A stretch of 64,000 nucleotides of DNA from NCBI GenBank assembly GCA_041666945.1, contig JBAYFY010000002.1, positions 64,701-128,700 of the forward strand, read 5' to 3'. The notes below the pieces were generated by a model that was not told the DNA's origin, ran no database searches, and saw only the letters and a program-made list of their open reading frames with translations. Below, piece after piece: positions 5,665 to 55,366 of the stretch; position 1 is the stretch's first letter; every line of letters begins with the position of its first letter. The DNA comes from Candidatus Buchananbacteria bacterium (GTDB lineage Bacteria; Patescibacteriota; Patescibacteriia; 2-01-FULL-39-33). The translations under genes were made by a program, and so were the position numbers.

Positions 5665-8244
5665 ATGCCTTTGGAAGAAATGCAAAATCCCTATCAATTT
5701 GATTGGCTCGCTTTATTTTCCGGTATACCCGAGGCGGCGGTTTATGCCGTTAGCGGCGTAGTTATTTTTTTGTTGCTTTGTTTTATCGCATTGCTGGTTG
5801 CGCGCGCCGTTTTCCGGTCGCAGAAACGCTACCCCAAGGTATTCCAGCAGCATATTTTTTTGGTGACTGTGCCGCAACGAACCAAAGAAGAGGGGATGGA
5901 AAAAAAACAATTATCGGAAACGATCTCGGAAATTGAAGGATTGTACTCAAATTTGGGCGGTTTGCGTTCGCCTCGGGGTTTTAAAACCTGGCTGTTTGGC
6001 CGGTTTGATCATTGGTCGTTTGAGATTGTCTTGGGTTTGGACGGCCTGATTTCTTTTTATATCGCCGTGCCCGAATATTTGGTGGAATACGTTAAACAGC
6101 AGATTTTTTCCAAGTATCCTTACGCGCAGATTGAAGAGACCGGCGACTATAATATTTTCAACCAGCAAGGGTTTGTCGCCATTGGTTATTTCAAGCTGCT
6201 TAAGCAGAACATGTTTCCGCTTTTGACCTACAAGCAGATGAATAATGTGGATCCGCTTGTGTCCATTATCAGCGTGTTGTCAAAATTTGGCGATAAGCAG
6301 ACCGCGGCCATTCAATTGGTAATGCGTTCAGCCGCGCCCGGTTGGCGCAAGAAGGGCGTCAAAGTGGCGTCGGAAATGCAACAGGGCAAGGATATCAAAA
6401 AAGCCATGGCCGCCGCTAATCCCGGATTTTTTTCCGGCCTGGAAAGAGTTTTCGGCACGCCAGCGGATTGGTTTTTTTCTTCCAAGCCCAAAGATCCGGC
6501 CAAGCCCGAACAGCAATATCGTTTGTCGCCCATGGAAGAGCAGGCCGTCAAAGCGATTGAAGAAAAAGCTTCCAAGGCCGGCCTGGACGTTAACGTCCGC
6601 GTAGTGGCTTTTGCGCCGCTGGAATCCCAAGCCAACGAAAATCTTCGGCGCTTGATTGATTCTTTCGCCCAATATTCCAGCTACCAGTACGCTAACGGCT
6701 TTAAGGGCGTGGTCAAAGGCGAGGGCCGGCAATTGATCCATGATTTTATTTACCGCAATTTTGATGAGAAGGCGGGCATGGTGCTTAACACCGAAGAAAT
6801 GACTTCATTATGGCATCTGCCTTTGCCTAACACCGAAGTGCCGCGCATTAATTGGCTGACAGCTCGGCGTTTGCCCCCGCCTTTGAATATCCCGACCGAA
6901 GGCGTGATGATCGGTGAAAATGTTTATCGCGGGCAGAAAACGATAGTCAGGATGAAAGACGTTGATCGCCGCCGCCACATGTATATTATCGGTATGACCG
7001 GCACCGGTAAATCCACGACCATGGCCACGATGGCGGCGCAGGATATCCGCGACGGCAGGGGCGTTTGCGTGGTGGATCCGCACGGCGAGTTGGTGGAAAA
7101 CATCTTAAAGCATATCCCCAAGGAACGCGCGGAGGATGTTATTTTGTTTGACCCGTCCGACCTGGAGCGGCCGATCGGCTTGAATATGCTGGAAGCCACC
7201 AGTCCCTACGAGATGGATATGGCGGCGCAGGAAATGATTAATATTTTTTACAAACTTCTGCCCGATCCGGCCATGGCCGGACCGATGTTTGAGCATTATA
7301 TGAGAAACGCGCTATTGGCGCTCATGGCCGACCGCGAAGATCCGGGGACGCTGGTGGAACTGGCGCGCATTTTTACCGATGACGCTTTCCGCAAGAAAAA
7401 ATTGGAGCACGTGACCGATATCTTGGTTAAGGATTTTTGGGAAAGGGAATACGCCATGTCACAGAAGGGCTCGACCGGCGCCGATATGCTGTCTTATGTC
7501 ATTTCTAAAACCGGCCGGTTTGTGGAAAACGAATTGATGCGCAATATCATCGGTCAGTCGCATTCGGGCATTAATTTCCGCGAGGCCATGGATTCGGGCA
7601 AAATCCTGTTATTGAATTTATGCAAAGGCAAAATCGGCGAAACCAACAGCAGCTTGTTGGGTTTAATTGCCGTGGCTAAATTGCAAATGGCGGCTTTGTC
7701 CCGCGCCGATATGCCCGAAGAACAGCGCCAAGATTTTTTCCTGTATATTGACGAATTCCAGAATTTCATCACCGATTCTATCTCTATTATTCTGTCTGAA
7801 GCGCGCAAATACAAATTAAATCTGTGCTTGGGGCATCAGTTTATCGCGCAATTAGTGCAGAATAACGATACGCGGGTGCGCGACGCGGTTTTTGGCAACG
7901 TGGGCAACTTGCTGGTTTATCGCATCGGTGTGGATGATTCGGAAATTATCGCCAAGCAGTTGTCGCCGGTGGTGAATGAATACGACGTGATGAATATTGA
8001 AAAATACAACGCTTATTTCCGCATCATGATTGACAATACGGCCATGCCGGCATTCAATCTGAAATGTTATCAACCGTCTCAAGTGGTTCCGGCCAGCCCC
8101 GAAATCGTGGCGCCGCTGAAGGAATTATCCCGGCTCAAACACGGCCGCGACCGCCAACTGGTGGTGCGCGATATTGCCGAACGCAGCCGCATCGGCCAGC
8201 TGGGCGGGGTCAAGAAAGAGACCTTGGGTGAATTCGGGTTCTAA
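5665..8244 (+). CDS. Membrane-anchored VirD4/TraG-like (DUF87-type) P-loop ATPase, orphan type IV coupling-protein homolog
   Basis: N-terminal transmembrane helix. Walker A GMTGTGKST is followed by DPHGE. A Walker B-like YIDEFQNF and a TraG-D_C-like C-terminus (ARKYKLNLCLGHQF) are present. The start is moved to the ATG at 5665, downstream of the repeat-derived codons. Confidence 0.78.
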   Translation: MPLEEMQNPYQFDWLALFSGIPEAAVYAVSGVVIFLLLCFIALLVARAVFRSQKRYPKVFQQHIFLVTVPQRTKEEGMEKKQLSETISEIEGLYSNLGGLRSPRGFKTWLFGRFDHWSFEIVLGLDGLISFYIAVPEYLVEYVKQQIFSKYPYAQIEETGDYNIFNQQGFVAIGYFKLLKQNMFPLLTYKQMNNVDPLVSIISVLSKFGDKQTAAIQLVMRSAAPGWRKKGVKVASEMQQGKDIKKAMAAANPGFFSGLERVFGTPADWFFSSKPKDPAKPEQQYRLSPMEEQAVKAIEEKASKAGLDVNVRVVAFAPLESQANENLRRLIDSFAQYSSYQYANGFKGVVKGEGRQLIHDFIYRNFDEKAGMVLNTEEMTSLWHLPLPNTEVPRINWLTARRLPPPLNIPTEGVMIGENVYRGQKTIVRMKDVDRRRHMYIIGMTGTGKSTTMATMAAQDIRDGRGVCVVDPHGELVENILKHIPKERAEDVILFDPSDLERPIGLNMLEATSPYEMDMAAQEMINIFYKLLPDPAMAGPMFEHYMRNALLALMADREDPGTLVELARIFTDDAFRKKKLEHVTDILVKDFWEREYAMSQKGSTGADMLSYVISKTGRFVENELMRNIIGQSHSGINFREAMDSGKILLLNLCKGKIGETNSSLLGLIAVAKLQMAALSRADMPEEQRQDFFLYIDEFQNFITDSISIILSEARKYKLNLCLGHQFIAQLVQNNDTRVRDAVFGNVGNLLVYRIGVDDSEIIAKQLSPVVNEYDVMNIEKYNAYFRIMIDNTAMPAFNLKCYQPSQVVPASPEIVAPLKELSRLKHGRDRQLVVRDIAERSRIGQLGGVKKETLGEFGF

Positions 8245-8405: not shown

Positions 8406-10136
8406 ATGGGCAGCGCTTTATACCGCAAATACCGGCCGCAGACCTTTGCGCAAATGATCGGCCAAAACCATATCAAAATCACCCTGCAGCATCAGCTGGA
8501 AAGGGGAGAATCGGCGCACGCTTACTTGTTTTGCGGTCCGCGCGGTTTGGGCAAAACCACCAGCGCCAGGTTGTTCGCCAAATCCATTAATTGCGAGAAG
8601 CGCGTAAACGGCGAAAGCGAACCCTGCAATGCTTGCCCGTCTTGCTTGGATATCATGGCCGGCCGCAGCGTGGATATCATTGAGATTGACGCCGCCAGCA
8701 ATACGGGTGTGGATAATGTCCGCGAAAATATTATTGAGAACTCACGCTTCACGCCGGTTAAGAGCAAGTATAAGGTGTTTATTATTGATGAGGCGCACAT
8801 GTTATCTAACGCCTCGTTTAACGCCTTGCTTAAGATTATGGAGGAGCCGCCGGCGCACGTGCTGTTTATTCTATGTACGACGGAAATCCACAAACTGCCG
8901 CTGACCATTATTTCCCGCTGCCAGCGTTTTGATTTCAAGAAAGTTACAGCCGAACAATTATTGAAACGTCTGCAGCTGATTGTTGAGGGCGAGAACAAAA
9001 AGGTTGAAGAAGAAGTGCTCAAGCGCATCGTAGTGGTTTCTGAAGGATGCGTGCGCGATGCGGAAAGTTTGCTGGCCAAGATTCTGTCCTTGGGCGATGA
9101 TATCACCCTGGAACAAGCCGAGATCGTTTTGCCGCGCAGCGATTTTCAGATCATTCTTGATTTTGTGGAATACCTGGCGGAAAAAAACGCCGCCGCCGCC
9201 GTGGAGCATCTCAATCGCTTAATGGAAGAAGGCGTGGATTTGTCGGTATTTACGGAAAACCTGTTGGAATTTTTACGGCAGATGATGCTGGTTAAAGTCA
9301 ACGGCCGCTTGGCGGTTTTCGGTTTGGAATTCAATGACGATTTGGCGGAAAATATCAAGGATTTAGCTGATAAATTCAGTTTTGCCGAAATCGTGGAGAT
9401 GGTGGAGATTTTTTCCGATAAAGCCAAAGAAATCAAACAAGCGCCAATCATGCAATTTCCTTTGGAAATCGCCGTGATCAGATTAGTGGAGCGCGTCTCC
9501 TGCGCCAAGCCGGATAAAATAATTTTCGCCGCCGCATCAGCGCCGGCGGTTGCCGCCGCTCCTACTGTTCCTGCGGCCGGCAAACCGGCTGCCGTCGCCC
9601 CGAGCGTCGCCATAAAAAAAGATACGTCAACCGCTCATGATAAAACTGAAACGGCGACAGTACCGGCCAGCCGCCGGCCAGCTGCTAGTCAGCCGACCAT
9701 TGCCGCCGCTGCCAGTCAGCCGACTTTGGATCAAAATGTGTCTTTGGCCGATATCGCCGCCAACTGGGGCCAGCTTATCAATCGTCTAATCAAGACGAAT
9801 TTTTCCCTGGGATCGCTCTTGCGCATCAGTCAGCCGCTGTCTTGCGACAAAGGAGTGTTGCAGGTCGCTGTTACCAGTTTATTCTATAAGAACCGTCTGG
9901 AGACCCAAGATAACCAGAAAGTGGTAGAAGACACTTTATTGGAAGTGGCGGGGATTAATATCAGAGTCAAAGGAGTGGTGTCGCAAACCGTGGTGCCGCT
10001 GGAGGTAGCGATTGACTATGGCGAGGATTTGGCTGTGCCGTCCAATGATTTTTCACCGCCGCCGGTTCCGCCGGCTCCTGAAACCGTTCCGCCTATTCGG
10101 CTGGATCCGACAGAGGATGTGTTAGGTATGCTATAA
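8406..10136 (+). CDS. dnaX: DNA polymerase III subunit gamma/tau
   Basis: N-terminal clamp-loader AAA+ motifs (GPRGLGKTT, the zinc module CNACPSC, the SRC motif) and a Pro/Ala-rich linker. Confidence 0.9.
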   Translation: MGSALYRKYRPQTFAQMIGQNHIKITLQHQLERGESAHAYLFCGPRGLGKTTSARLFAKSINCEKRVNGESEPCNACPSCLDIMAGRSVDIIEIDAASNTGVDNVRENIIENSRFTPVKSKYKVFIIDEAHMLSNASFNALLKIMEEPPAHVLFILCTTEIHKLPLTIISRCQRFDFKKVTAEQLLKRLQLIVEGENKKVEEEVLKRIVVVSEGCVRDAESLLAKILSLGDDITLEQAEIVLPRSDFQIILDFVEYLAEKNAAAAVEHLNRLMEEGVDLSVFTENLLEFLRQMMLVKVNGRLAVFGLEFNDDLAENIKDLADKFSFAEIVEMVEIFSDKAKEIKQAPIMQFPLEIAVIRLVERVSCAKPDKIIFAAASAPAVAAAPTVPAAGKPAAVAPSVAIKKDTSTAHDKTETATVPASRRPAASQPTIAAAASQPTLDQNVSLADIAANWGQLINRLIKTNFSLGSLLRISQPLSCDKGVLQVAVTSLFYKNRLETQDNQKVVEDTLLEVAGINIRVKGVVSQTVVPLEVAIDYGEDLAVPSNDFSPPPVPPAPETVPPIRLDPTEDVLGML

Positions 10137-10144
10137 TTATAGTA

Positions 10145-10357
10145 TCGTCATTTCCGCAATTATAACATCGTCATTCCCGTAATTATAGTATCGTCATTCC
10201 CGTAACTATAATATCGTCATTCCCGTAATTATAGTATCGTCATTCCCGTAACTATAATATCGTCATTCCCGTAACTATAATATCGTCATTCCCGTAACTA
10301 TAATATCGTCATTCCCGTAACTATAATATCGTCATTCCCGCGCAGGCGGGAATCCAG
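10145..10357. repeat. Tandem array of about 8 copies of a 23-bp unit TCGTCATTCCCGTAACTATAATA, ending in a TCGTCATTCCCGCGCAGGCGGGAATCCAG palindrome
   Basis: Perfect and near-perfect direct repeats start at the dnaX stop codon. There are no unique spacers, so this is not a CRISPR array. Confidence 0.85.
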
Positions 10358-10365
10358 ATATTATT

Positions 10366-10490
10366 TGATCCCCGGACATTTTTTAGTTCACTATACTCGC
10401 TGGGATCTCCGGATAAATCCTCCCGCTTACGCTTACGGATTTTCCGAACCTGCCTGCCGGTAGACAGGGATGACATTAGAGGATATTGGC
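10366..10490. repeat. About 90-bp interspersed element (copy A) containing CTGCCGG(T/C)AG(A/G)CAGGGATGAC
   Basis: Aligns with 41745..41835; the shared core is GGATC(T/C)CCGGA(T/C)AAATCCTCCCGCTTACGCTTACGGATTTTCC. Confidence 0.6.
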
Positions 10491-11974: not shown

Positions 11975-12178
11975 ATGACAAAAGTCAAACTGCAATTCGT
12001 TAAGAATCTGGTTTGGGGCCTTGTGTCCGAGGGTGTCATCGCCATTTTGTTCGGCATTTTGATTATGGTTTATCCGGAATTATTGAGCATTCTGGTGGGC
12101 CTGGCCTTGATTGTTACCGGCGTGGTTTCATTGTCGCTGGCGATTAGAGCCAACAAGTATTCCTCAATTGAGTTCTAA
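11975..12178 (+). CDS. Small 2-TM membrane protein (HdeD/DUF308-like)
   Basis: 67 aa with two hydrophobic helices. No Shine-Dalgarno is visible. Confidence 0.55.
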   Translation: MTKVKLQFVKNLVWGLVSEGVIAILFGILIMVYPELLSILVGLALIVTGVVSLSLAIRANKYSSIEF

Positions 12179-12210
12179 AAAAGAACAAGAAAAATCCCGA
12201 CCAATTGGCC

Positions 12211-12640
12211 GGGATTTTTTAGTTGTCATTCCCGCATCCCTTTCGTCATTCCCGCACTCCCTTCGTCATTCCCGCACTCCCTTCGTCATTCCCGCGTACC
12301 TTGTCTGCCGGCAGGCAGGGGCGGGAATCCAGGTTATAATTTTTTTTACGATACCCCTTCGTCATTCTCACTTTCGTCATTCCCGCACTTCCTTCGTCAT
12401 TCCCGCGAAGGCGGGAATCCAGATTTCTTGTCATTCCCGCGTACCTTTCGTCATTCCCGCACTCCCTTCGTCATTCCCGCGAAGGCGGGAATCCATGCTA
12501 TCATTTTTTATGATACCTTTCTTTAGGAGAAAGGTATCACCAAAGAGTCGCGAGCGAAGCATAAATCATGGCTGGATTTTATGCTCCACCTGCCTGCCGG
12601 CAGGCAGGATTACAAAACTTTTCTGGTCACTCTCGCATAA
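12211..12640. repeat. Dense non-coding repeat field with the GTCATTCCCGC half-site and GCGGGAATCC palindromes
   Basis: Three clusters of 20-bp GTCATTCCCGC half-site repeats, each ending in a GCGGGAATCC palindrome. It also holds a perfect 12-bp-stem hairpin tgatacctttct/agaaaggtatca and CTGCCGGCAGGCAGG palindromes. The listed 195 aa ORF 12111..12698 is just translation of these repeats. Confidence 0.8.
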
Positions 12641-12694
12641 AGTCGCACAAGATTTTGTTATGCTCGCATTTTGGAATACAAATAAAGAAATAAA

Positions 12695-12727
12695 ATAAAT
12701 GCCTCGCCACATAATGCGGCGAGGCAG
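12695..12727 (-). terminator. Rho-independent terminator for the minus-strand small-gene pair
   Basis: The gcctcgcc/ggcgaggc stem is followed on the minus strand by a T-rich run. Confidence 0.5.
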
Positions 12728-12741
12728 GGAAATCAAAAGAA

Positions 12742-13038
12742 CTACGGTCTTGTGGTTGGTGCTACTATCAATACATTGAGAACTCCCGATACAGGCGGAA
12801 TGTCTTTAATCAACAGATCCGATGTCGGGTTGGTTAACCGTATAACGTGAGTTACCAACCAGTAGCGGTTATCTCTGTCTATTGGATGTAGATTGGCCAA
12901 CTTCAGTGCTCCCTCATCAAGAAAGATGATGTCGCCTTTATGGATCGGCTCTGGCCAATCCAGAAGTATCGGAAGTATCGGCGACGTACCACGACCTGTC
13001 CCTCCAAATTCTACCTGGTAAGTGTGTTTTTCTCCCAT
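12742..13038 (-). CDS. Hypothetical protein (98 aa)
   Basis: An AAAGGAG Shine-Dalgarno sits 8 nt upstream of the ATG. No recognisable domain. Confidence 0.55.
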   Translation of the reverse strand: MGEKHTYQVEFGGTGRGTSPILPILLDWPEPIHKGDIIFLDEGALKLANLHPIDRDNRYWLVTHVIRLTNPTSDLLIKDIPPVSGVLNVLIVAPTTRP

Positions 13039-13097: not shown

Positions 13098-13268
13098 TTA
13101 TCTTGTGACTTCCAGCGCTACCAAAATAAATTCCTTGCCGTCCCGATGGAAGGTGGTCATAGCGGTAATTCGTTTTCCCTTTCCAGGGAACATATCTGCC
13201 CATAATCCTATTTGTGAATCTAAGGTTATTGTCACTTCAAATTCTTTAACATAGATGCTTGTTTCCAT
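13098..13268 (-). CDS. Hypothetical small protein (56 aa, start METSIY)
   Basis: An AAAGGAAG Shine-Dalgarno precedes the internal ATG. It sits upstream of, and is co-oriented with, the 12742..13038 gene. Confidence 0.45.
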   Translation of the reverse strand: METSIYVKEFEVTITLDSQIGLWADMFPGKGKRITAMTTFHRDGKEFILVALEVTR

Positions 13269-13492
13269 ATTCTTCCTTTCTCTTTCTGTGTCATTAGTTT
13301 TTTTCGGCAATATGGCGCAAGCCACTGACCGTTTTTAACGTACTACATATCATCATATAATAGTATACATTAATAATTTTGTCAAGTAGTTTATCCACAA
13401 TTAAGATATTTTGTTTAATTTTAGGTATTTTTTTAAGGAAAAATCATTCCATTTTTTTATTTGTCGGAATTTTGTTATTATTAAAGAAGCTT

Positions 13493-15706
13493 ATGGTCAA
13501 ATATGTTTTACGCGCCGCTCCAATGGCCAAGGATTTTAAAATTGATTATGCCAAGGAGTTAAACGAAGATCAATACAAGGTCGTAACCGAGGGCTACGGG
13601 CCTTGTTTAGTTTTGGCCGGCGCCGGCTCGGGCAAGACGCGGACTCTGGTGTACCGCGTGGTGTATTTGTTGGAGCAAGGCGTGCCCGCTTCCAGCATAA
13701 TGCTCGTGACTTTCACCAACAAAGCGGCCAAGGAAATGTTGGAGCGCATTGAAGTGCTGCTTCACGGCGAGGCCAAGGGGTTGTGGGGTGGGACTTTCCA
13801 TCACTTGGGCAATCGGCTGTTGCGCATGTATGGCGAGCGCATTAATATCGCTAATAACTTTACGATTTTAGATGAAGAGGATTCTTTGACTTTACTCAAG
13901 AATTGTTTGAGCCGCAGTAATCCTCCGGAAGACAAATATTTTCCCAAGGCCAAAGTCATCCGCTCCATAATTTCTCTGTCGCAGAATCTGTGTCAGCCCA
14001 TCCGCGAAGTTATTGCCGCGCGTTACGATTATCTTAAAGACAGCTACTTGCCGTGTATCTTGGAAGCTGCTGATCTATACAAAGAACGCAAAACGCAAAT
14101 CAACGCGTTGGATTTTGACGACCTCCTGATCAAGTGGAACGAACTGCTGGAACAAGCGCCGGAAATAAAAAAGCGTTTGGGTGAGAAGTTCGCCTACATT
14201 TTAATTGATGAATTCCAAGACACCAACGCTTTGCAATCCAAAATCATCGCCAATCTGGCCGCGCCCCAGCGCAATATCCTGGCGGTGGGAGATGACGCCC
14301 AAAGCATCTATGGTTTTCGTGGCGCCGATGTCAACCATATTTTGGATTTTCCCAAGCAGTTCCCCGATGCTAAGATTTTACGGCTGGAGATCAACTATCG
14401 TTCCACTCCCGAGATTCTGGCTTTGGCCGATACTTCCATTAACCATAATGACGCCAAGTTTGAAAAGCATTTGAAAGCGATTCGGGCCAAGGGTGCTAAG
14501 CCGGCCGTGGCGGCTTTGACTGATAATTATCAGCAAGCGGAATTCGTCTGCCAACGGATTCTGGATTTGCAACGCGAAGATGGTTTGCCGCTTAACAGCA
14601 TGGCCGTATTATTTAGATCGCACTTCCAATGTCTGGAATTGGAAATGGAACTCAACAAGCGCAATATTCCATATCAGATGCGTGGGGGACTGCGGTTTTT
14701 TGAACAGGCGCACTTAAAAGATATCCTGGCTTACTTAAAAATCTTAGCCAACTTCCGTGACGAGGTTTCTTGGTTGCGGTTACTTAGTATGCAAGGCGGG
14801 ATTGGCGAGATGACGGCGGAAAAGATCTGGCAATGGTTAAGGCAATTTGATGGCGTTTCTTCAATTTTTTCTACATCTTCTTCCGTCATTCACGACCCCT
14901 CTTCCGTCATTCACGACCCCTCTTCCGTCATTCACGACCCCTCTTCCGTCATTCCCGCGCAGGCGGGAATCCAGCATAATAATTCAACCTGGATTCCTGA
15001 TCAAACCAGGAATGACATTTCCTTGGGCGCTAAGGCCGCCAGTGGCTGGTCGGCTTTAAAGCGCACGCTGGAAAAGATTGCGCGAATAGATAAAAATGAT
15101 TTACCGGCGCTTGTTACCGCTATTATTGATTCGGGTTATGAAAAATATTTGCAGGCCAATTATGAGAATTTTCAGGATCGGTTGGATGATTTGACGCAGT
15201 TGACAGAATTCGTCAAGTCCTATGACAGTTTGGAAAGATTTTTGGCCGATACCGCGTTGTCGGAAAACTTTCAGGGCCAATCGCGCGCGCCGCGGCCGGA
15301 GAATGGCAATGAACAAATAATCTTGTCCACCATTCATCAGGCCAAGGGCCTGGAGTGGCCGGCAGTGTTTGTGATCGGTTTGGCGGAGGGCATGTTCCCG
15401 CACGCCAAGGTTTATGACAAACCGGAGGAACTGGAGGAGGAACGCCGGTTGTTTTACGTGGCTTGCACCCGCGCCAAAGACCAGCTGTATTTGAGTTATC
15501 CATTGTTCGGCCGCGACAGCATGCTGCATCCGTCGCAATTTATTAAGGAACTGCCGAGCAAATTGTATGATCGCTGGGATGTGGAGGCGGGCGAAGACGA
15601 GGTGATTTACGTGGATGAAGAAGGGGAACGCGCGTCAGGTCCGGGCAAACGGAAGGGCATTTTGGATTTTGATCCGGAACTGGAGATTGAGGAATCGGAT
15701 TATTAA
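13493..15706 (+). CDS. UvrD/PcrA/Rep-family ATP-dependent DNA helicase (the start is uncertain: 13493 or 13523)
   Basis: Walker A AGAGSGKTRTLV, the DEFQDTN motif, and the VTRAK-like motif VACTRAKDQLYLSY. The N-terminal codons of the listed ORF overlap an AT-rich promoter region that carries a TTATCCACA box. Confidence 0.85.
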   Translation: MVKYVLRAAPMAKDFKIDYAKELNEDQYKVVTEGYGPCLVLAGAGSGKTRTLVYRVVYLLEQGVPASSIMLVTFTNKAAKEMLERIEVLLHGEAKGLWGGTFHHLGNRLLRMYGERINIANNFTILDEEDSLTLLKNCLSRSNPPEDKYFPKAKVIRSIISLSQNLCQPIREVIAARYDYLKDSYLPCILEAADLYKERKTQINALDFDDLLIKWNELLEQAPEIKKRLGEKFAYILIDEFQDTNALQSKIIANLAAPQRNILAVGDDAQSIYGFRGADVNHILDFPKQFPDAKILRLEINYRSTPEILALADTSINHNDAKFEKHLKAIRAKGAKPAVAALTDNYQQAEFVCQRILDLQREDGLPLNSMAVLFRSHFQCLELEMELNKRNIPYQMRGGLRFFEQAHLKDILAYLKILANFRDEVSWLRLLSMQGGIGEMTAEKIWQWLRQFDGVSSIFSTSSSVIHDPSSVIHDPSSVIHDPSSVIPAQAGIQHNNSTWIPDQTRNDISLGAKAASGWSALKRTLEKIARIDKNDLPALVTAIIDSGYEKYLQANYENFQDRLDDLTQLTEFVKSYDSLERFLADTALSENFQGQSRAPRPENGNEQIILSTIHQAKGLEWPAVFVIGLAEGMFPHAKVYDKPEELEEERRLFYVACTRAKDQLYLSYPLFGRDSMLHPSQFIKELPSKLYDRWDVEAGEDEVIYVDEEGERASGPGKRKGILDFDPELEIEESDY
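14872..14975 (+). repeat. In-frame MITE insertion inside the helicase coding sequence
   Basis: Three copies of the 21-bp unit cttccgtcattcacgacccct are followed by cttccgtcattcccgcgcaggcgggaatccag. It translates in frame as SSVIHDP repeated three times, then SSVIPAQAGIQ. The same palindrome family occurs in intergenic DNA. Confidence 0.8.
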
Positions 15707-18254: not shown

Positions 18255-18614
18255 TTACTTTTCCATCCTCGCCGTTGGCGGGGATGTTTTTTCCAACCTT
18301 GTTTTCCATGACCAACAGAGCCGGCCGATTTCCTCTGTTTTAAGCGCCAAATTTTTAAATTTACTGTCGTCCAGCAGTTTCATTTCCCAGCACAGGCGTA
18401 GATAAAATTTCAATAGATCATTTTTGCCAATAGCCGCCTGGGCCAAGCCGAGTTTTTTGTCTTTGGGCGAATAATTGGCAACAGCCAATAATTCCAGCAA
18501 TTCCAAAAACAACTGATCCAGCCGCGCGCCCAAAGTGAAGCGCGAAGATTTGGGAAAGTTTTTCAACCAGTCGTGCCAGAGCTTGTAAGCAGTCGTGGCT
18601 TTATGCAAGACCAT
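18255..18614 (-). CDS. avd: DGR accessory variability determinant (Avd, four-helix-bundle protein)
   Basis: The FPKSSRFTLGARLDQLFLELLELLAVAN ... EEIGRLCWSWK pattern matches the four-helix-bundle/bAvd family. It is encoded on the strand opposite the TR and RT and abuts the TR. The likely start is the internal Met MVLHK. Confidence 0.72.
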   Translation of the reverse strand: MVLHKATTAYKLWHDWLKNFPKSSRFTLGARLDQLFLELLELLAVANYSPKDKKLGLAQAAIGKNDLLKFYLRLCWEMKLLDDSKFKNLALKTEEIGRLCWSWKTRLEKTSPPTARMEK

Positions 18615-18650
18615 AAAATTTTCGTCGGGAGGGGGGTTAAATGAAATATT

Positions 18651-19631
18651 ATGCGAGTTGTCAGACAATTGAACCATAGTTTTGAAGAGATAATTTGTTT
18701 AGATAACTTACTGGCGGCCTGGCGTGAATTCGCGCGCGGCAAGAGAGGCAAAAAGGATGTCCAGGAGTTTGAGTGGTCTTTGATGGATAATATTATCGCG
18801 CTTCAGGATGATTTGGCAAGCGGCAATTACCGCCATGGCGACTATAAAGATTTTCATATCGACGATCCCAAACCGCGTCATATCCACAAGGCCGGCGTGC
18901 GCGACCGTTTGGTGCATCATGCGGTATACCGCATTCTGTACCCGTATTTTGATAAAAAATTTATCGCCGATTCGTATTCTTGCCGATTAGACAAAGGAAC
19001 GTGTAAGGCCTTAAACCGATTCCGGCAATTCGCTTATCAAGTCGGTCGCAATAATACTCGCGCTTGCTGGATATTGAAAGGCGATATCAGGAAATTTTTT
19101 GCCAGCATTGATCAGAGGATTTTGAAAATTATTTTAGCCGAGTATATTGGCGATAAAAAAATTTTGGATTTGTTAGATAAAATAATTAATAGTTTCGGCA
19201 TTACTAGCAGAGGTTTACCGCTTGGCAATCTTACTTCGCAATTATTGGTTAATATTTATATGAATAAGTTCGATCAATTCGTTAAGAATCAATTAAAAGC
19301 CAAATATTATATCCGCTATGCCGATGATTTTATAATATTTTCAGAAAATAAAAATTATTTGGACGCTTTAATCCCGCAGTTGGATTATTATTTGACGGAC
19401 AAATTAAAATTGAAACTCCATCCGAATAAAATTTTTATAAAAACCCTGGGTTCCGGAGTGGATTTTTTGGGTTGGGTCAATTTTCCACATCATCGAGTTT
19501 TAAGAACTGTGACTAAAAGAAGGATGTTAAAAAGAATAGGAATTAATCCAAGCCGGGAGACGCTGGCATCTTATCTGGGGTTGTTAAGTCATGGTAATAC
19601 CTATAAATTGCTGGTAAAATTGCCAATATAG
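18651..19631 (+). CDS. DGR reverse transcriptase
   Basis: FEEIICLDNLLAAWREFARGKRGKKDV, HIDDPKPRHIHKAGVRDRLVHHAV and the YIRYADDFIIF (YxDD) box. The domain organisation is typical of DGR RTs. Confidence 0.9.
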   Translation: MRVVRQLNHSFEEIICLDNLLAAWREFARGKRGKKDVQEFEWSLMDNIIALQDDLASGNYRHGDYKDFHIDDPKPRHIHKAGVRDRLVHHAVYRILYPYFDKKFIADSYSCRLDKGTCKALNRFRQFAYQVGRNNTRACWILKGDIRKFFASIDQRILKIILAEYIGDKKILDLLDKIINSFGITSRGLPLGNLTSQLLVNIYMNKFDQFVKNQLKAKYYIRYADDFIIFSENKNYLDALIPQLDYYLTDKLKLKLHPNKIFIKTLGSGVDFLGWVNFPHHRVLRTVTKRRMLKRIGINPSRETLASYLGLLSHGNTYKLLVKLPI

Positions 19632-19714
19632 GTGATTTTTGTTAAGATAAATAAGAAATAAATAACGAAGATCCTGGATATTTTCTTGCCAGAAAATTCC
19701 GGGATGACAAAATT

Positions 19715-41744: not shown

Positions 41745-41835
41745 GATTATGGATCCCCGGACAAATCCTCCCGCTTACGCTTACGGATTTTCCAGGCCTA
41801 TCTGCCGGCAGGCAGGGATGACGATAAAGGATATT
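41745..41835. repeat. About 90-bp interspersed element (copy B)
   Basis: Aligns with 10366..10490 and contains CTGCCGGCAGGCAGGGATGAC. Confidence 0.6.
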
Positions 41836-42242: not shown

Positions 42243-42620
42243 ATGTCGCTTAAGCAATTAATCATTACCATAATCATCGCCACCTTGTTGTGTTGGGCCA
42301 GCTGGCTGCTGGTTATTTTTGAGGTGGATCCGACGACCGCCGGCTTTTACGGCCTGCTGATTTTTTATTCCAGCATGTTTTTGTCTTTGCTGGGCTTGTT
42401 TTTTTTGATCAGTTTCGGTTTTCGCAAAATGTTTAATCGGTTGGAAATGGAATACAAGCTGGTGGGCATGTCTTTTCGCCAATCGTTTTTTTTCTCGTTG
42501 GCGATAGTGGGATTTTTCTTTTTGCAGAGCAAGGATTTATTGACTTGGTGGAATAGTATTCTGCTGGTCTTGGCCTTGGTGATTTTAGAATTTTTCTTTT
42601 TGAGTTATCGGAGAAAATAG
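42243..42620 (+). CDS. Hypothetical 4-TM membrane protein
   Basis: 125 aa with four hydrophobic segments. Confidence 0.6.
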   Translation: MSLKQLIITIIIATLLCWASWLLVIFEVDPTTAGFYGLLIFYSSMFLSLLGLFFLISFGFRKMFNRLEMEYKLVGMSFRQSFFFSLAIVGFFFLQSKDLLTWWNSILLVLALVILEFFFLSYRRK

Positions 42621-42664
42621 AGCAATAGAAGCCGTCCCGTTGCCGGGACGTCTTTTTTGTTATT

Positions 42665-42975
42665 ATTTTCTCTTTTCTTTTTTCTACGTCACCCCCTCCT
42701 GTCATTCCCGCACCCCCTTCGTCATTCCCGCACCCTCTTTGTCATTCCCGCGTAGGCGGGAATCCAAGTTATAATTTTTTTGTCATTCCCGCACCCTTTT
42801 GTCATTCCCGCACCCTCTTTGTCATTCCCGCGAAGGCGGGAATCCAGGTTTAGAAATTTAGATTTCATTTCTGGTACCTTTCTCTATTGTCATTTCGACC
42901 GAAGCCGACGTAAACGTCGGCGCAGTGGAGAAATCGCTTGAATTAAATTAAAGGGATTCCTCCGCTACGGTCGGA
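42665..42975. repeat. Repeat field upstream of pheS with an internally deleted inverted-repeat element
   Basis: Two clusters of GTCATTCCCGC 20-bp half-site repeats, each ending in a GCGGGAATCC palindrome. At 42885..42975 there is an internally deleted element with inverted termini TTGTCATTTCGACCGAAGC...GCTACGGTCGGAATGACAA. The listed pheS ORF start lies inside it. Confidence 0.8.
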
Positions 42976-43020
42976 ATGACAAAAGGTAATTTGACTAAAC
43001 TAAAGCAAAACAGTTATAAT

Positions 43021-44109: not shown

Positions 44110-44202
44110 TATTAGCTTGTAGATTTTATAATTTTGCATTAATCACCCATAAAAGGTTTTGCAGATAAAAAGTAGTATAAGATTTATTAATAGTCACATT
44201 AG

Positions 44203-45150
44203 ATGAGATATATGTCTATTCCAAATTTTGAACAAATAATGAGTCCAATGATTAAGGATATCATTGATGGCGAAAATCATTCAATGAATGATATCGTCGA
44301 TCATTTATCGGAATTTTTTAATTTAACTGAAGATGAAAAAAATGTTAGATATCCCACTAGTGGAGCAAAAATTTTTCAAAATAGAGTTAGATTTGCTCGC
44401 TTATATTTAATGAAGGCTGGTTTAATCGAATCACCAATCCGTGGTTTTATAAAACTAACATCAGATGGGTTAATGCTTTTTAAAAAAGAAACCCCAAACA
44501 TTAATTTAGATTATCTTGAAAAATTACCGAAATTTCAAGAATTTCAAAAAATGCAAAAAGAAACACAAAGAAATAAAAAAGATAGTTCTAATAATGAAAG
44601 AATTGTTTTGCATGCAGAAAATAATCTGGAACAAATTCCCGAAGAACAATTAGAAAATGCATTCCAGATAATTAATGATAATTTATCCGTTGAAATATTA
44701 GATACTTTAAAAAAGTGTCAACCATTATTTTTTGAAAAAATAGTAGTTGATCTTGTATTAAAAATGGGCTACGGTGGTTCGTTTAAGGATGCTGGTGAAG
44801 CCATAGGTAAAAGTGGTGATGGTGGAATTGATGGGATAATTAAGGAAGATAGACTTGGTTTAGATTTAATTTATTTACAAGCTAAAAGGTGGGAAAATGT
44901 AGTCCCAGTAAAAGAGATAAGAGATTTTGCTGGATCCTTAATGTCTAAAAAGGCTAAGAAGGGAATTTTTATTACTACATCAAGTTATCCCACGTCAGCT
45001 TTCGAATTTGTAAAATCAGTTGACCATAGAATAATACTAATCGATGGTCAACAATTAGCGAAATTATTAATTGATTTTAATGTTGGAGTTACAACGGAAT
45101 CAGTTTATGAAATTAAAAAAATTGATGGCGATTATTTTATAGAAGAATAA
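44203..45150 (+). CDS. mrr: Mrr-family restriction endonuclease (Mrr_N winged helix plus Mrr_cat)
   Basis: The catalytic region carries GGSFKDAGEAIGKSGDGGIDGII ... YLQAKRW. It is AT-rich relative to its flanks and is inserted between pheS and pheT. Confidence 0.85.
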   Translation: MRYMSIPNFEQIMSPMIKDIIDGENHSMNDIVDHLSEFFNLTEDEKNVRYPTSGAKIFQNRVRFARLYLMKAGLIESPIRGFIKLTSDGLMLFKKETPNINLDYLEKLPKFQEFQKMQKETQRNKKDSSNNERIVLHAENNLEQIPEEQLENAFQIINDNLSVEILDTLKKCQPLFFEKIVVDLVLKMGYGGSFKDAGEAIGKSGDGGIDGIIKEDRLGLDLIYLQAKRWENVVPVKEIRDFAGSLMSKKAKKGIFITTSSYPTSAFEFVKSVDHRIILIDGQQLAKLLIDFNVGVTTESVYEIKKIDGDYFIEE

Positions 45151-45162
45151 TTTATAAACTTA

Positions 45163-45195
45163 AATATCTCGTACAACTGGCTAAAGTCGTAGCCC
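45163..45195 (+). repeat. 33-bp direct duplication of the pheT 5' end
   Basis: ttaaatatctcgtacaactggctaaagtcgtag at 45163 versus ctaaatatctcttacaactggctaaagtcgtat at 46088, the first codons of pheT. Confidence 0.7.
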
Positions 45196-45663
45196 GTTGT
45201 CATTCCGACCGAAGCGTAGCGTAGTGGAGGAATCCCTTTAAAAGCACTTTATGGTTAAATATTACTACTTGTATATTATGGCTTCAGAATCCGGAACTTT
45301 ATATGTCGGGATTACAAATAATCTTGGTCGGCGAGTATGGGAACATAAAAATGAAATTATTGAGGGCTTTACTAAAAAATACGGCTGTAAGAGATTGGTT
45401 TATTATGAATACGGACAAGATGTTAATGGCGCTATCTGTAGAGAAAAACAAATTAAAAATTGGAATAGAAAAAAGAAAGAATTTTTGATAAAAACAATTA
45501 ACCCAAAATGGATTGATTTAAGCAAAGAAATGTTCGGTTTTAAAGAATTTTGAGGGATCCCTCCACTCGGCCTTGAGGCCTCGGTCGGGATGACAAGAAA
45601 AAGAAAGGCCTCGGTCGGGATGACAAGAAAAAGAAAGGCCTCGGTCGGGATGACAAGAAAACA
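45185..45663 (+). mobile_element. MITE-family element carrying a GIY-YIG nuclease gene, a putative autonomous copy, with a triplicated right end
   Basis: The left terminus GTCATTCCGACCGAAGCG...GTGGAGGAATCCC at 45185-45235 and the inverted right terminus GGGATCCCTCCAC...CCTCGGTCGGGATGAC at 45553-45596 bracket the GIY-YIG ORF. Three 30-bp tandem copies of the right terminus follow at 45577-45663. The termini match the empty element at 42885..42975. Confidence 0.5.
45251..45553 (+). CDS. GIY-YIG nuclease superfamily protein (about 100 aa)
   Basis: YYLYIMASESGTLYVGITNNLGRRVWEHK, matching the GIY, YIG, R and E motifs. Confidence 0.8.
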   Translation: MVKYYYLYIMASESGTLYVGITNNLGRRVWEHKNEIIEGFTKKYGCKRLVYYEYGQDVNGAICREKQIKNWNRKKKEFLIKTINPKWIDLSKEMFGFKEF

Positions 45664-45665
45664 AT

Positions 45666-46079
45666 TTGATTAAAAATATGAAAGGTACGGCAGAACAATT
45701 CAAAAAAGATAATATAAAAAAGTATCATAAAGGTGCAATTCTTAAACTAAGAGATATAGCAAGAAAAACAAAGTTGGTTTTTGAGTTTGTTGAGGATCGT
45801 TTCTATTATACTCAAAGCAATTTATCAGAAAAAGTATTCTTTATTGATAAGTTAAAGAAATTAGATGTTGATAAAAGCAAGTTAGCTTATCCCAATGGGT
45901 GGGAAGTCGGAGAAATTGAGTACAGATTTGGTTATTATATTATAAGTCAATATGGGAGAAGAAAAGGACATTGGACTTTTGCCCAATTTTGCCCAATATT
46001 TCCCCTTAATGATCTAAAAAATATTTTACAGAAAATGAAAAATAAAGGCATTATAGGAAAAAATTTTAAAATATTATAA
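45666..46079 (+). CDS. Hypothetical protein (137 aa), part of the pheS/pheT insertion
   Basis: Six-frame ORF. It is AT-rich and lies between the GIY-YIG element and pheT. Confidence 0.5.
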   Translation: MIKNMKGTAEQFKKDNIKKYHKGAILKLRDIARKTKLVFEFVEDRFYYTQSNLSEKVFFIDKLKKLDVDKSKLAYPNGWEVGEIEYRFGYYIISQYGRRKGHWTFAQFCPIFPLNDLKNILQKMKNKGIIGKNFKIL

Positions 46080-46081
46080 AT

Positions 46082-54397: not shown

Positions 54398-55366
54398 ATG
54401 AAAAAATCCGCAGAACCATTAATCAGGCACATCAATGACTTTTTGGATTATATTGAGGTGGAAAAGGGCCTTTCCCCCGTTTCCGCCAAGAATTACCACA
54501 ATTTCCTTAAAGTGTTTGTCATTTGGCTTAAGGACAATAATCTATCCGGGATTAAGCCCCATGAGCTGGATAGCAAGCATATTTGGGATTTTCGGCTGTA
54601 TTTGTCTCATAAAAAGGACTCCCGGGGGCAATACTTGAAAAAGACCACCCAGAGTTATTATTTGAGGGCGCTTAGGCAACTTTTGAATTATTTCGCCGAA
54701 AAAGACATCAGTTCCCTGCCGGCGGAAAAAATTAAACTGCCGAAACTTACTGATAAGGATCGACAAATAAAATTCTTATCTTACAGCCAGGTAGAACATT
54801 TGCTGTCCATGCCGGATTTAAGCGATATTTCCGGACTGCGCGATCGGGTGATTTTGGAGGTTCTTTTTTCAACCGGCATGCGCGTTTCCGAGTTAACTTC
54901 GCTTAACTTGAAACAATTTGACGCCGCGGGAATTCTTAGCAACAAGATTAAAGATCTGGAATTATCAATCGCCGGCAAGGGCGGCAAGGTTAGGACTATT
55001 TATTTTTCACCGCGCGCCGTTAAGTATTTGGCTTTATATTTGAAAGCGCGGCAAGAAGATATGCTTACTCCCCTTTTTATCAACTATAGCCGTAACACCG
55101 GCGATAAAGGCGAACGGCGTTTAACCAGCAGAGCGATTGAAAATCTGGTAAAAAAATATACGGTTATGGCCGGCTTGCCGGTTGACGCTACGCCGCATAC
55201 CCTAAGGCATAGTTATGCCACTGATTTGTTGGAACAAGGAGCTGATTTGAGGTCGGTTCAGGAATTATTGGGTCATAGCAATGTGGCTACTACGCAAATT
55301 TACACCCATGTTACTAATCCCCGTTTAAGGGATGTGTATAAAAAATTCCACAGTGGCAGTAAATAA
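54398..55366 (+). CDS. Tyrosine recombinase XerC/XerD family
   Basis: The C-terminal catalytic box HTLRHSYATDLLEQGADLRSVQELLGHSNVATTQIYTHV. Confidence 0.85.
   Translation: MKKSAEPLIRHINDFLDYIEVEKGLSPVSAKNYHNFLKVFVIWLKDNNLSGIKPHELDSKHIWDFRLYLSHKKDSRGQYLKKTTQSYYLRALRQLLNYFAEKDISSLPAEKIKLPKLTDKDRQIKFLSYSQVEHLLSMPDLSDISGLRDRVILEVLFSTGMRVSELTSLNLKQFDAAGILSNKIKDLELSIAGKGGKVRTIYFSPRAVKYLALYLKARQEDMLTPLFINYSRNTGDKGERRLTSRAIENLVKKYTVMAGLPVDATPHTLRHSYATDLLEQGADLRSVQELLGHSNVATTQIYTHVTNPRLRDVYKKFHSGSK

Follow-up and report, generated by a model that had tools for sequence, protein, structure and literature searches.

Tandem arrays of the tag-side half of NTS-type hairpins in a Patescibacteria genome and in other bacteria

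A 64,000-nucleotide stretch of a Candidatus Buchananbacteria metagenome-assembled genome (MAG) (contig JBAYFY010000002.1 of GCA_041666945.1, positions 64,701 to 128,700; hereafter the window) carries short tagged palindromes of the NTS/SRM type, which are targets of the Ssn family of single-stranded DNA (ssDNA) endonucleases, together with tandem arrays in which the tag-bearing left half of the palindrome is repeated by itself. The window contains eight such arrays, and one full hairpin terminates each of them. The explanation that we favor for the whole, and consider likely, is that NTS hairpins targeted by a nuclease undergo in-situ tandem duplication of their nuclease-side half. Neither the palindrome and its family nor the nuclease that partners it is new, while the multiplication of the nuclease-cut half alone into short tandem arrays is apparently undescribed so far: arrays of the tag-side half with one full hairpin are not mentioned in PMC11893778 or PMC3733652, and sequence and peptide text searches of the open-access literature returned no mention of them.

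How REPs carrying a CGTC tag (dRS3, NTS, RPE-6) proliferate is a standing question, to which a survey of 2013 brought no transposase and a paper of 2025 brought a cutting nuclease. The arrays described here follow a strict recurring rule, in that only the cut-side half is repeated and the repeat stops at the junction of stem and loop, and a symmetric palindrome alone cannot yield such a rule. The restriction to the cut side implicates an asymmetric partner, which could be the nuclease or the leader sequence that precedes the tag. The arrays offer a concrete and testable handle on the in vivo behavior of CGTC REPs that have no transposase.

Tagged hairpins and half-site arrays in the window

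About half of the copies of the dRS3 repeat belong to a longer, oriented 28-nt element, NTS, with the consensus CGTCATTCCCGCGMAVGCGGGAATCYRG (Nat Commun 2025, PMC11893778). Its partner SsnA is a single-domain GIY-YIG protein of ~100 aa which binds and cuts NTS, acting on ssDNA only and on the tagged strand only. The cut falls ~5 nt 5' of the G of GTCAT, within the leader, and at least 6 nt more are required 5' of the cut, which places the start of the Ssn substrate near position -11. The loop of NTS is dispensable, and the left half is cut if the right half is given in trans. Across bacteria, ssn genes are typically flanked by SRM-type motifs, and the interpretation of the NTS-ssn-NTS arrangement as a domesticated mobile element is offered in that paper as speculation only (PMC11893778). 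An earlier survey described the CGTC-1 REP family as hairpins tagged with CGTC or TGTC, in which an 8-bp stem that begins with AT closes a 4-nt loop and a CCA tail follows, the elements occurring mainly as head-to-head dimers (Di Nocera et al. 2013, PMC3733652). This family includes dRS3 of Neisseria and RPE-6 of Rickettsia, has copies within UvrD/Rep helicase and tRNA-synthetase genes, and belongs to the CGTC REPs that "apparently lack a dedicated transposase" (PMC3733652).

The original prediction for this DNA, made from the sequence alone, had recognized a dRS3-like palindrome of the form ATTCCC-N8-GGGAAT. This form is real: six exact copies are present in the window against 0.03 expected, none of 100 shuffles reached six, and the copies match the longer oriented NTS consensus that contains dRS3. 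Exact matches to CGTCATTCCCGCGMAVGCGGGAATCYRG were found at three sites (10330, 12395 and 14947), matches with one mismatch, as allowed in PMC11893778, at 12469 and 42820, and a match with more mismatches at 42740. The published degenerate SRM pattern, HGTCWYN(0-2)YYVSBRHN(0-5)WNVSBRGN(0-2)RNCYNB (PMC11893778), matched the window five times, compared with a mean of 0.12 and a maximum of 1 in 50 Markov-1 simulations. When folded as DNA, the NTS sites form an 8-bp stem and a 4-nt loop with energies of -8.9 to -9.3 kcal/mol (z = -3.1 to -3.8). Non-palindromic flanks give the elements an orientation, and all 29 exact copies of the tagged half-site GTCATTCCCG lie on one strand, the + strand; with up to one mismatch allowed, 38 copies of this half-site were counted in the window against 4.2 expected. 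The features of CGTC-1 elements are found in the window as well, namely the CGTC or TGTC tag, the 8-bp stem from AT, the 4-nt loop and the CCA-type tail, and head-to-head dimers are present at 14947-15016, 46693-46759 and 10330-10474. Judged from these sequence features, the window palindromes can be assigned to the NTS/SRM elements (equivalent to CGTC-1 REPs, to dRS3 in Neisseria and to RPE-6 in Rickettsia), and we are highly confident of the identity of the element and of its nuclease partner. The element consists of a G-poor pyrimidine leader of ~10 nt, a CGTC tag, an 8-bp stem with a 4-nt loop, and a CCAG tail.

The resemblance to the NTS/SsnA system (PMC11893778) includes base-for-base agreement with the 28-nt consensus at three sites, the CGTC orientation, the ssDNA hairpins, and the distribution across phyla. 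A small single-domain GIY-YIG gene, a candidate counterpart of ssn, is also present, with GTCAT-tagged hairpins on either side of it. The window differs in that its host is a MAG of the Patescibacteria, or candidate phyla radiation (CPR), and in that the nuclease gene is flanked by diverged hairpins and not by canonical NTS; half-site arrays are undescribed in that paper, in whose text the word "tandem" is absent. Intragenic copies account for 2% of NTS in N. meningitidis (PMC11893778) but for 2 of roughly 9 sites in the window. With the CGTC-1 REPs (PMC3733652) the window elements share stem, loop, tag and tail, the head-to-head dimers, and in-frame insertions in a UvrD/Rep helicase and a tRNA synthetase. 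In contrast, head-to-tail dimers were negligible and grouped elements rare in that survey, arrays of left halves only were undescribed, and the family was found mainly in Alphaproteobacteria. Neisseria dRS3 shares the 20-bp form. In Neisseria it borders blocks of RS repeats within intergenic mosaic elements and is a site of phage integration, and the mosaic clustering with other small repeats seen in the window is similar in spirit. The REP/BIME/REPIN elements of E. coli and Pseudomonas are also short, tagged, extragenic ssDNA hairpins; they occur as inverted dimers and on the flanks of the gene whose product recognizes them. In REP/RAYT systems, however, the tag is GTAG and not CGTC, and an HUH/Y1 transposase cuts and rejoins DNA whereas the GIY-YIG enzyme Ssn is hydrolytic. 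Tandem reiteration is known for whole REPs in Pseudomonas, whereas the window arrays consist of half elements.

The array at 10134-10357 (+ strand) begins at the dnaX stop codon and is made up of eight left half-units followed by a full NTS, CGTCATTCCCGCGCAGGCGGGAATCCAG, at 10330-10357, which folds at -9.3 kcal/mol (z = -3.8). Tandem Repeats Finder (TRF) describes a 23-bp period repeated 9.0 times with 92% matches at 10134-10340, each period combining a 13-nt AT-rich leader with GTCATTCCCG. Exact copies of GTCATTCCCG start at 10170, 10193, 10216, 10239, 10262, 10285, 10308 and 10331, with a one-mismatch copy at 10147. The architecture of a half-site array closed by a palindrome, as the original prediction had put it, was thus borne out here, and the further arrays that it listed are also present, one full palindrome ending each. 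These are three 20-bp left half-units with a terminal NTS at 12225-12332 (+), identified by repeat listing and folding; a degenerate 15-nt unit and a 20-nt unit with a consensus-exact NTS (12395-12422) at 12361-12422 (+); two 20-bp left half-units with an NTS that matches the SRM pattern (12469-12496) at 12430-12496 (+); a degenerate unit and two 20-bp left half-units with a terminal palindrome whose loop is GTAG at 42687-42767 (+); and, upstream of pheS, two left half-units of 19-20 bp with an NTS that matches the SRM pattern (42820-42847) at 42782-42847 (+). Absent from the earlier list were an array in a helicase open reading frame (ORF) at 14879-14974, an element in pheT at 46693-46759, a reverse array at 45576-45661, and the GIY-YIG gene. 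The helicase array (+) has three 21-bp left half-units with the variant core GTCATTCACG and an exact NTS at 14947-14974 (TRF, 21 bp x 3.6). The reverse array, at 45555-45661 (- strand), consists of three 30-bp left half-units and then a full variant hairpin at 45555-45594 (TRF, 30 bp x 2.9 at 45576-45661); its unit is an 11-nt pyrimidine leader joined to the 19-nt GTCATCCCGACCGAGGCCT. The half-site arrays alone have a folding energy of 0 kcal/mol.

Several smaller observations concern the arrays of the window. The terminal NTS at 12285-12332 contains a nested 24-nt palindrome, CTGCCGGCAGG, in its loop, and it keeps the outer 8-bp stem and folds at -12.7 kcal/mol. The double-array block at 12343-12495, in the order array, NTS, array, NTS, is a dispersed copy of the block at 42681-42846, 30 kb apart, and its presence at two loci indicates that whole blocks of arrays are moved or recombined together. 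An intrinsic terminator at 42633-42650 precedes the array at 42687-42767. The long array-spanning ORFs at 12111-12698 (+) and 12246-12434 (-) are repeat-encoded and almost certainly spurious, and the MAG annotation has a 62-aa gene at this place. For annotation, the arrays account for spurious ORFs and for 7-aa repeats such as SSVIHDP in MAG proteins. Three small ORFs adjoining arrays (12742-13038, 13098-13325 and 42243-42620) were considered as sources of a partner protein and set aside, as they had no Pfam or NCBIfam matches.

Array architecture across genomes

A scan of 185,579 species-representative genomes with a pattern of two half-sites and a terminal palindrome recovered at least 119 loci with a half-array and a palindrome, in more than a dozen phyla. 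The taxa comprise Alpha-, Beta- and Gammaproteobacteria, Campylobacterota, Bdellovibrionales, Syntrophus, Chloroflexota, Clostridia, Eggerthellales, Planctomycetota, Zixibacteria, Bacteroidota, Omnitrophota, Terriglobia, Vampirovibrionales and several Patescibacteria, and the loci include complete isolate genomes (NZ_CP184830, NZ_CP169531) and chromosome-level MAG assemblies. The cross-genome counts that follow apply among the matches listed. Periods range from 17 to 24 bp with a mode of 21, and arrays reach at least 16 copies. Counted from the G of GTCAT, the homology of the unit to the terminal hairpin extends for 10-13 nt in 131 of 139 arrays; the mode is 11, which is the last stem base, and is independent of the period. 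The rest of the unit is a leader of 7-11 nt that differs in sequence between genomes and is always G-poor (at most 8% G) and C/T-rich. Solitary NTS copies have the same type of pyrimidine leader.

Left-half arrays outnumbered right-half arrays by 137 to 0 in these genomes and by 5 to 0 in the window. In 2.9 million viral contigs, seven left-half arrays and no right-half array were found, and a more permissive pattern detected no right-half array in 241 million metagenome records, a collection on which no positive control was run. Three rules hold: the tag-side half alone is repeated, the unit ends at the stem-loop junction, and a G-poor pyrimidine leader of 7-11 nt is included. In the window, a variant hairpin with an 18-nt left arm has given rise to a 30-bp unit, composed of an 11-nt leader and 19 nt that reach the first loop base, so the unit boundary follows the apex of the hairpin and not a fixed length. 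A fixed ruler of ~21 bp was rejected on this basis, as arm and leader together set the period; the search pattern itself restricted periods to 18-24 bp. An origin of the arrays in phages was also rejected, given only seven array matches in the 2.9 million viral contigs.

Array length varies. Two copies of one element resembling a miniature inverted-repeat transposable element (MITE), which have identical flanks and lie in one genome, carry 3 and 5 units. This element, in the gammaproteobacterial MAG contig CBDBDW010000002.1 (locus L031, 3700-4000 and 5500-5800), is ~220 bp long, is bounded by the terminal inverted repeats GTAACTACTCACCCCC and includes a reverse SRM as well as the NTS array, whose copy number is all that distinguishes the two copies. 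Variation is thus seen only between paralogous copies in another genome, and as presence or absence relative to a syntenic relative of the window (L121); an exact-flank scan of the metagenome collection for variation at strain level found nothing. The original prediction had named slipped replication or a site-specific recombinase as the source of the arrays; with array length variable and the arrays lacking from L121, slippage or duplication of some form is plausible, and it is the link to a recombinase that did not survive, as discussed below.

That the arrays are artefacts of short-read metagenome assembly has a probability close to negligible. The contig is a k141 MEGAHIT-style assembly (ENA ERZ27249449:k141_1624134, identical over the stretch compared), and the 207-bp array exceeds the largest k-mer. 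The longest run of identical units, however, is 5 units or 115 bp, which is shorter than k, and the units within an array differ among themselves. The array in coding sequence is in frame, and its three repeats are the same in gene call P0241, for which the cluster gives a contig of 212,810 bp compared with 104,552 bp here, the independence of the two assemblies being unconfirmed. The same architecture also recurs in the complete isolate genomes and chromosome-level MAG assemblies named above. An assembly collapse, which the original prediction had kept in view, is therefore unlikely.

Candidate nuclease and the origin of the arrays

A six-frame motif (regex) scan located a gene at 45251-45553 (+) whose 100-aa product is a single-domain GIY-YIG nuclease and a candidate member of the Ssn family of ssDNA endonucleases. 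Its only significant domain match is to Pfam PF01541 (residues 4-76, E = 6.5e-13), and by sequence inspection the spacing of its residues Y8, Y18 and E65 resembles that of the catalytic residues Y6, Y17 and E64 in SsnA. PADLOC returned no match for this ORF. A GTCAT-tagged SRM-like hairpin, GTCATTCCGACCGAAGCGTAGCGTAGTGGAGGAATCCC, lies 14 bp upstream of the gene at 45199-45236 (+; diverged, with a weak fold of z = 0.2), and the reverse tagged hairpin at 45555-45594 starts 2 bp past its stop codon, with the three 30-bp half-units beyond. Homologs that are 55-82% identical occur in Patescibacteria, Absconditabacterales, Nitrospirota, Holosporales, Babeliales and Casimicrobiaceae. Among the matches listed, nine homologs (E = 1e-18 to 1e-31), from taxa that include Terriglobia, Chloroflexota, Dehalococcoidia, Natronospirillum and Pseudomonadales, directly adjoin canonical NTS arrays in other genomes, and several homolog loci have the order forward NTS, gene, reverse NTS, the half-site arrays lying farther from the gene. 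At one further locus (L094, ~5830-6090), upstream of a GIY-YIG homolog, a complete NTS with a C-rich leader is present in five tandem copies with a period of ~36 bp; full-unit arrays exist too, and are much rarer than left-half arrays.

Two other enzymes could be invoked. A preprint ties the ATTCCCGCGCAGGCGGGAATC REPINs of Neisseria to a Group 2 RAYT, an IS200-like Y1 transposase, and the head-to-head dimers of the window resemble REPINs, so the palindromes might be REPINs mobilized by a RAYT and the arrays its products. We consider this very unlikely, as GIY-YIG genes adjoin arrays at the nine loci, CGTC REPs were found without a dedicated transposase by Di Nocera et al. (PMC3733652), no Y1 transposase family is among the precomputed Pfam hits for window positions 3.5-64 kb, and phmmer found no IS200-like ORF in the window or in 119 array loci, a weak test given that the query sequence was approximate. 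The second candidate is a site-specific recombinase acting at the palindrome, either the XerC/D-type gene at 54398-55366, to which the original prediction had drawn attention, or an IS110/Piv-type enzyme, by comparison with the one that inserts filamentous phage into the dRS3 sites of Neisseria. A tyrosine recombinase gene is indeed present in the window and dRS3 is cited as a phage recombinase target in PMC11893778, but the gene at 54398-55366 encodes an ordinary tyrosine recombinase, lies 9 kb from the nearest element, and has no NTS or other repeats at its flanks. The precomputed annotations (window 3.5-64 kb) contain no IS110-type gene, conservative recombination at the palindrome does not predict one-sided duplication of half-sites, and the published partner of the motif is the hydrolytic Ssn. 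It is extremely improbable that such a recombinase makes the arrays.

We propose instead that an array would arise by tandem duplication in situ of the 5', nuclease-side half of the element, that is, of the leader, the tag and the left arm as far as the stem-loop junction. The hairpin would become exposed as ssDNA, and restart or repair would then be misaligned between the leader and the hairpin apex. A strand- and side-specific nick, the low-complexity leader and the hairpin could together trigger the misaligned repair or replication that adds units, and ordinary slippage would later resize and homogenize the array. In the resulting structure, one right arm is common to several left arms. Each unit holds the part of the Ssn substrate that is 5' of the loop, comprising a leader of up to 11 nt that spans the published cut and the 6 nt required beyond it, the tag and the left arm, and it equals the "left half-substrate" known from the published biochemistry of Ssn. 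With a perfectly palindromic stem, a stall of purely structural origin would be expected to duplicate the left or the right half alike, and the absolute left bias implicates an asymmetric component: the nuclease, the low-complexity leader, or both. That the arrays depend on the nuclease for their genesis is a tentative suggestion, which we think less likely than not.

A number of points weigh against duplication of the half by way of a nuclease. The left boundary of the unit lies at -7 to -11, whereas the published cut is at -5, and a nick at -5 followed by copying to the apex would give units of 15-16 nt, not the observed 19-23. The divergence of units within arrays has no polarity (13 versus 12 in a comparison of spacers), so there is no sign of ordered addition of units one at a time; a count of 64 versus 11 that had seemed to favor polar growth was confounded by the pattern, which admits only perfect copies in the two units next to the palindrome, and with the unbiased 13 versus 12 polar growth was rejected. 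A template switch through the hairpin was rejected as well, since its flipped-loop signature was seen in 6-10 of the 139 units (among the matches listed); complementarity between the loop and the final 4 nt of the leader was found in only 2 of 139. The cross-genome sample was itself selected by our own pattern, with exact cores and an 18-24-bp period. As for the gene, the 100-aa ORF is only a candidate member of cd10448, the CDD family that defines Ssn; its nearest PDB match is a distant UPF0213 GIY-YIG protein (E = 4e-5), and although GTCAT-tagged hairpins are present on both of its flanks, they fail the SRM pattern and fold weakly. We infer from sequence only that this particular nuclease would cleave the window sites.

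Plain replication slippage at the hairpin, with no nuclease, would make the arrays ordinary minisatellites and neutral by-products of a polymerase-stalling palindrome. Copy number differs between copies with identical flanks; units within an array are often identical and lack polarity of divergence, as homogenizing slippage predicts; the half-site arrays have no structure of their own (0 kcal/mol); and the low-complexity leader provides microhomology. The window arrays resemble hairpin-driven repeat expansion, as in flap and slippage models, in their changes by whole units, in the stable hairpin at the edge of the repeat and in the homogenized units, but they differ in that the unit is not itself hairpin-forming, the array is one-sided, and the unit boundary coincides with the stem-loop junction. 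Slippage alone also has to contend with the arraying of the tag-side half only (137 versus 0 among the matches listed, 7 versus 0 in viral contigs, and no right-half array in the metagenome scan), and with the fact that the asymmetric parts of the element, tag and leader, are exactly where Ssn acts (PMC11893778). The low complexity of the leader alone could still explain the asymmetry. On balance we regard slippage without a nuclease as an unlikely explanation, though one to be taken seriously.

A stronger form of duplication by the nuclease is that left-half arrays are scars of a transposase-free, nuclease-driven cycle of propagation or repair, in which Ssn would nick the tagged strand in the leader each time the hairpin becomes single-stranded, and a misaligned restart between the region of the nick and the hairpin apex would add one unit; we consider this rather improbable. 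If it were true, Ssn activity in vivo could be read off the genome from its arrays, and these would give the first structural clue to the multiplication of CGTC-type REPs that lack a transposase, in more than a dozen phyla. In a bolder variant, the right arm would pair in turn with each left arm, and Ssn would release ssDNA oligomers of ~21 nt with 5' phosphates.

Recent insertions, gene contexts and other repeats

Locus L121, the syntenic relative of the window, has ~84% nucleotide identity to it. The spacer between dnaX and the sugar transferase gene is 36 bp in L121 and 400 bp in the window, and the array at 10134 is absent from L121; the spacer between the transferase and helicase genes is 48 bp in L121 and 1571 bp, filled with repeats, in the window. 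The L121 helicase gene is 138 bp shorter and lacks an insert of 46 codons, and L121 in turn has a head-to-head dimer at a site that is empty in the window. These differences in presence and absence indicate that elements have been gained, lost or moved since the lineages split, and the window insertions are recent. The elements have recently spread through intergenic DNA and, in frame, into surface loops of the helicase and of PheT. As elements have been gained since the split from a relative of ~84% identity, in some cases in frame within essential genes, the data suggest that the system is active in an ultra-small CPR genome.

The array at 14879-14974 and its head-to-head partner, the tagged hairpin CCTGGATTCCTGATCAAACCAGGAATGAC at 14988-15016 (-), lie in frame within the ORF of a PcrA/UvrD-like helicase. 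They encode SSVIHDP three times, then SSVIPAQAGIQ, then WIPDQTRND, the last from 14988-15016. The insert of 46 aa falls between PcrA residues 434 and 451, and is missing from PcrA, from the closest ortholog (P0122, 85-90% identical) and from seven other orthologs. The pheT element is a head-to-head dimer at 46693-46759 (+), in which an NTS whose loop is enlarged to 12 nt (46693-46726) faces a reverse partner (46731-46759); it folds at -17.7 kcal/mol (z = -4.3) and encodes SVIPAHPEAGIHNAGSPTKLGMT, which gives ~20-25 extra residues compared with the PheT structure 2rhs_B. Like the Rickettsia RPE, these palindromic repeats sit in frame in genes for housekeeping proteins, which tolerate the added peptides; in contrast to the RPE, the helicase insert holds a tandem 7-aa repeat from a 21-bp half-site array, and the host lineage is different. 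In an alignment of helicase orthologs (A1, columns 518-540; P0128 and P0138), the sequence ...TWDPSQAQDD of P0128 resembles a peptide encoded by a reverse SRM, and the helicase loop may be a recurrent insertion hotspot. At 16690-16810 of L121, upstream of a head-to-head SRM dimer, a flank of ~18 bp together with the first tag bases (ATAATTACACCATTGTCA) occurs twice at a distance of 37 bp, possibly the beginning of a left-side duplication whose unit is much longer.

The absence of the arrays from a close relative with the same genes, and their presence inside ORFs, also argue against the arrays being selected cis-regulatory modules such as promoters, terminators or iteron-like protein sites, an idea we regard as highly improbable. 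The arrays are otherwise intergenic, their 20-21-bp periods approximate two helical turns, and TATAAT is found in spacers of the 23-bp array. The original prediction had placed this hexamer in every 23-bp unit, and it occurs in only five of the eight spacers, the rest having TATAGT or TATAAC. It had also proposed that the arrays influence promoter strength or termination, and a consensus scan gave little reason to think so: it found one weak promoter-like site in the 23-bp array (9 of 12 matches, 10162-10189) and none in the other arrays, and no palindrome was called a terminator, whereas genuine terminator hairpins precede two arrays. Promoter-like sites (-35 and -10 hexamers with 16-18-nt spacing) numbered 12 in total, modestly above the 6.5 +/- 2.5 in shuffles. 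The spacer sequence, moreover, is wholly different between genomes and between sites. Structured RNA was rejected as well, since the window has neither Rfam matches at gathering thresholds nor genes for tRNA or tmRNA. The original prediction had also considered that the repeats might be conserved protein-binding sites; this description fits the full hairpin, which is a known protein target, and not the arrays, which are variable.

The GIY-YIG gene is one of three in an island of low GC content (GC 0.32) at 44110-46080, between pheS and pheT; the others encode an Mrr-type type IV restriction enzyme (44203-45150) and an unknown protein of 137 aa (45666-46079). The segment at 45134-45191 is a degenerate duplicate, ~58 bp long, of the pheT start region at 46063-46119; the island therefore seems to have inserted at the extreme 5' end of pheT, with the gene start rebuilt.

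Other hairpins in the window have the GTCAT...ATCC frame with different stems, at 19673-19708, 42889-42936 and 42953-42980, and none of them matches the published SRM pattern; such variants suggest several SRM-like subfamilies within one genome. The latter two are GTCAT-tagged variants in forward (42889-42936) and reverse (42953-42980) orientation, and the hairpin at 42953-42980 overlaps pheS as given in the ORF list (start 42976) by 5 bases, whereas the MAG's own pheS call starts later, past the hairpin. The reverse partner of the NTS at 10330 is a GTCAT-tagged hairpin in a 72-bp "type B" repeat at 10403-10474 (-), which ends in ...CCTGCCTGCCGGTAGACAGGGATGAC and has a second copy at 41751-41822. 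This repeat has the form GGATCYCCGGAYAAATCCTCCCGCTTACGCTTACGGATTTTCC...CTGCCGGNAGRCAGGGATGAC, with the reverse GTCAT-type tag at its end, and its CTGCCGGCAGG core recurs at 12297-12320, inside the NTS loop, and at 12594. A cassette resembling a diversity-generating retroelement lies at 18255-19631; its reverse transcriptase gene (18651-19631) and bAvd accessory gene (18255-18677, -) overlap, and the whole is absent from L121.

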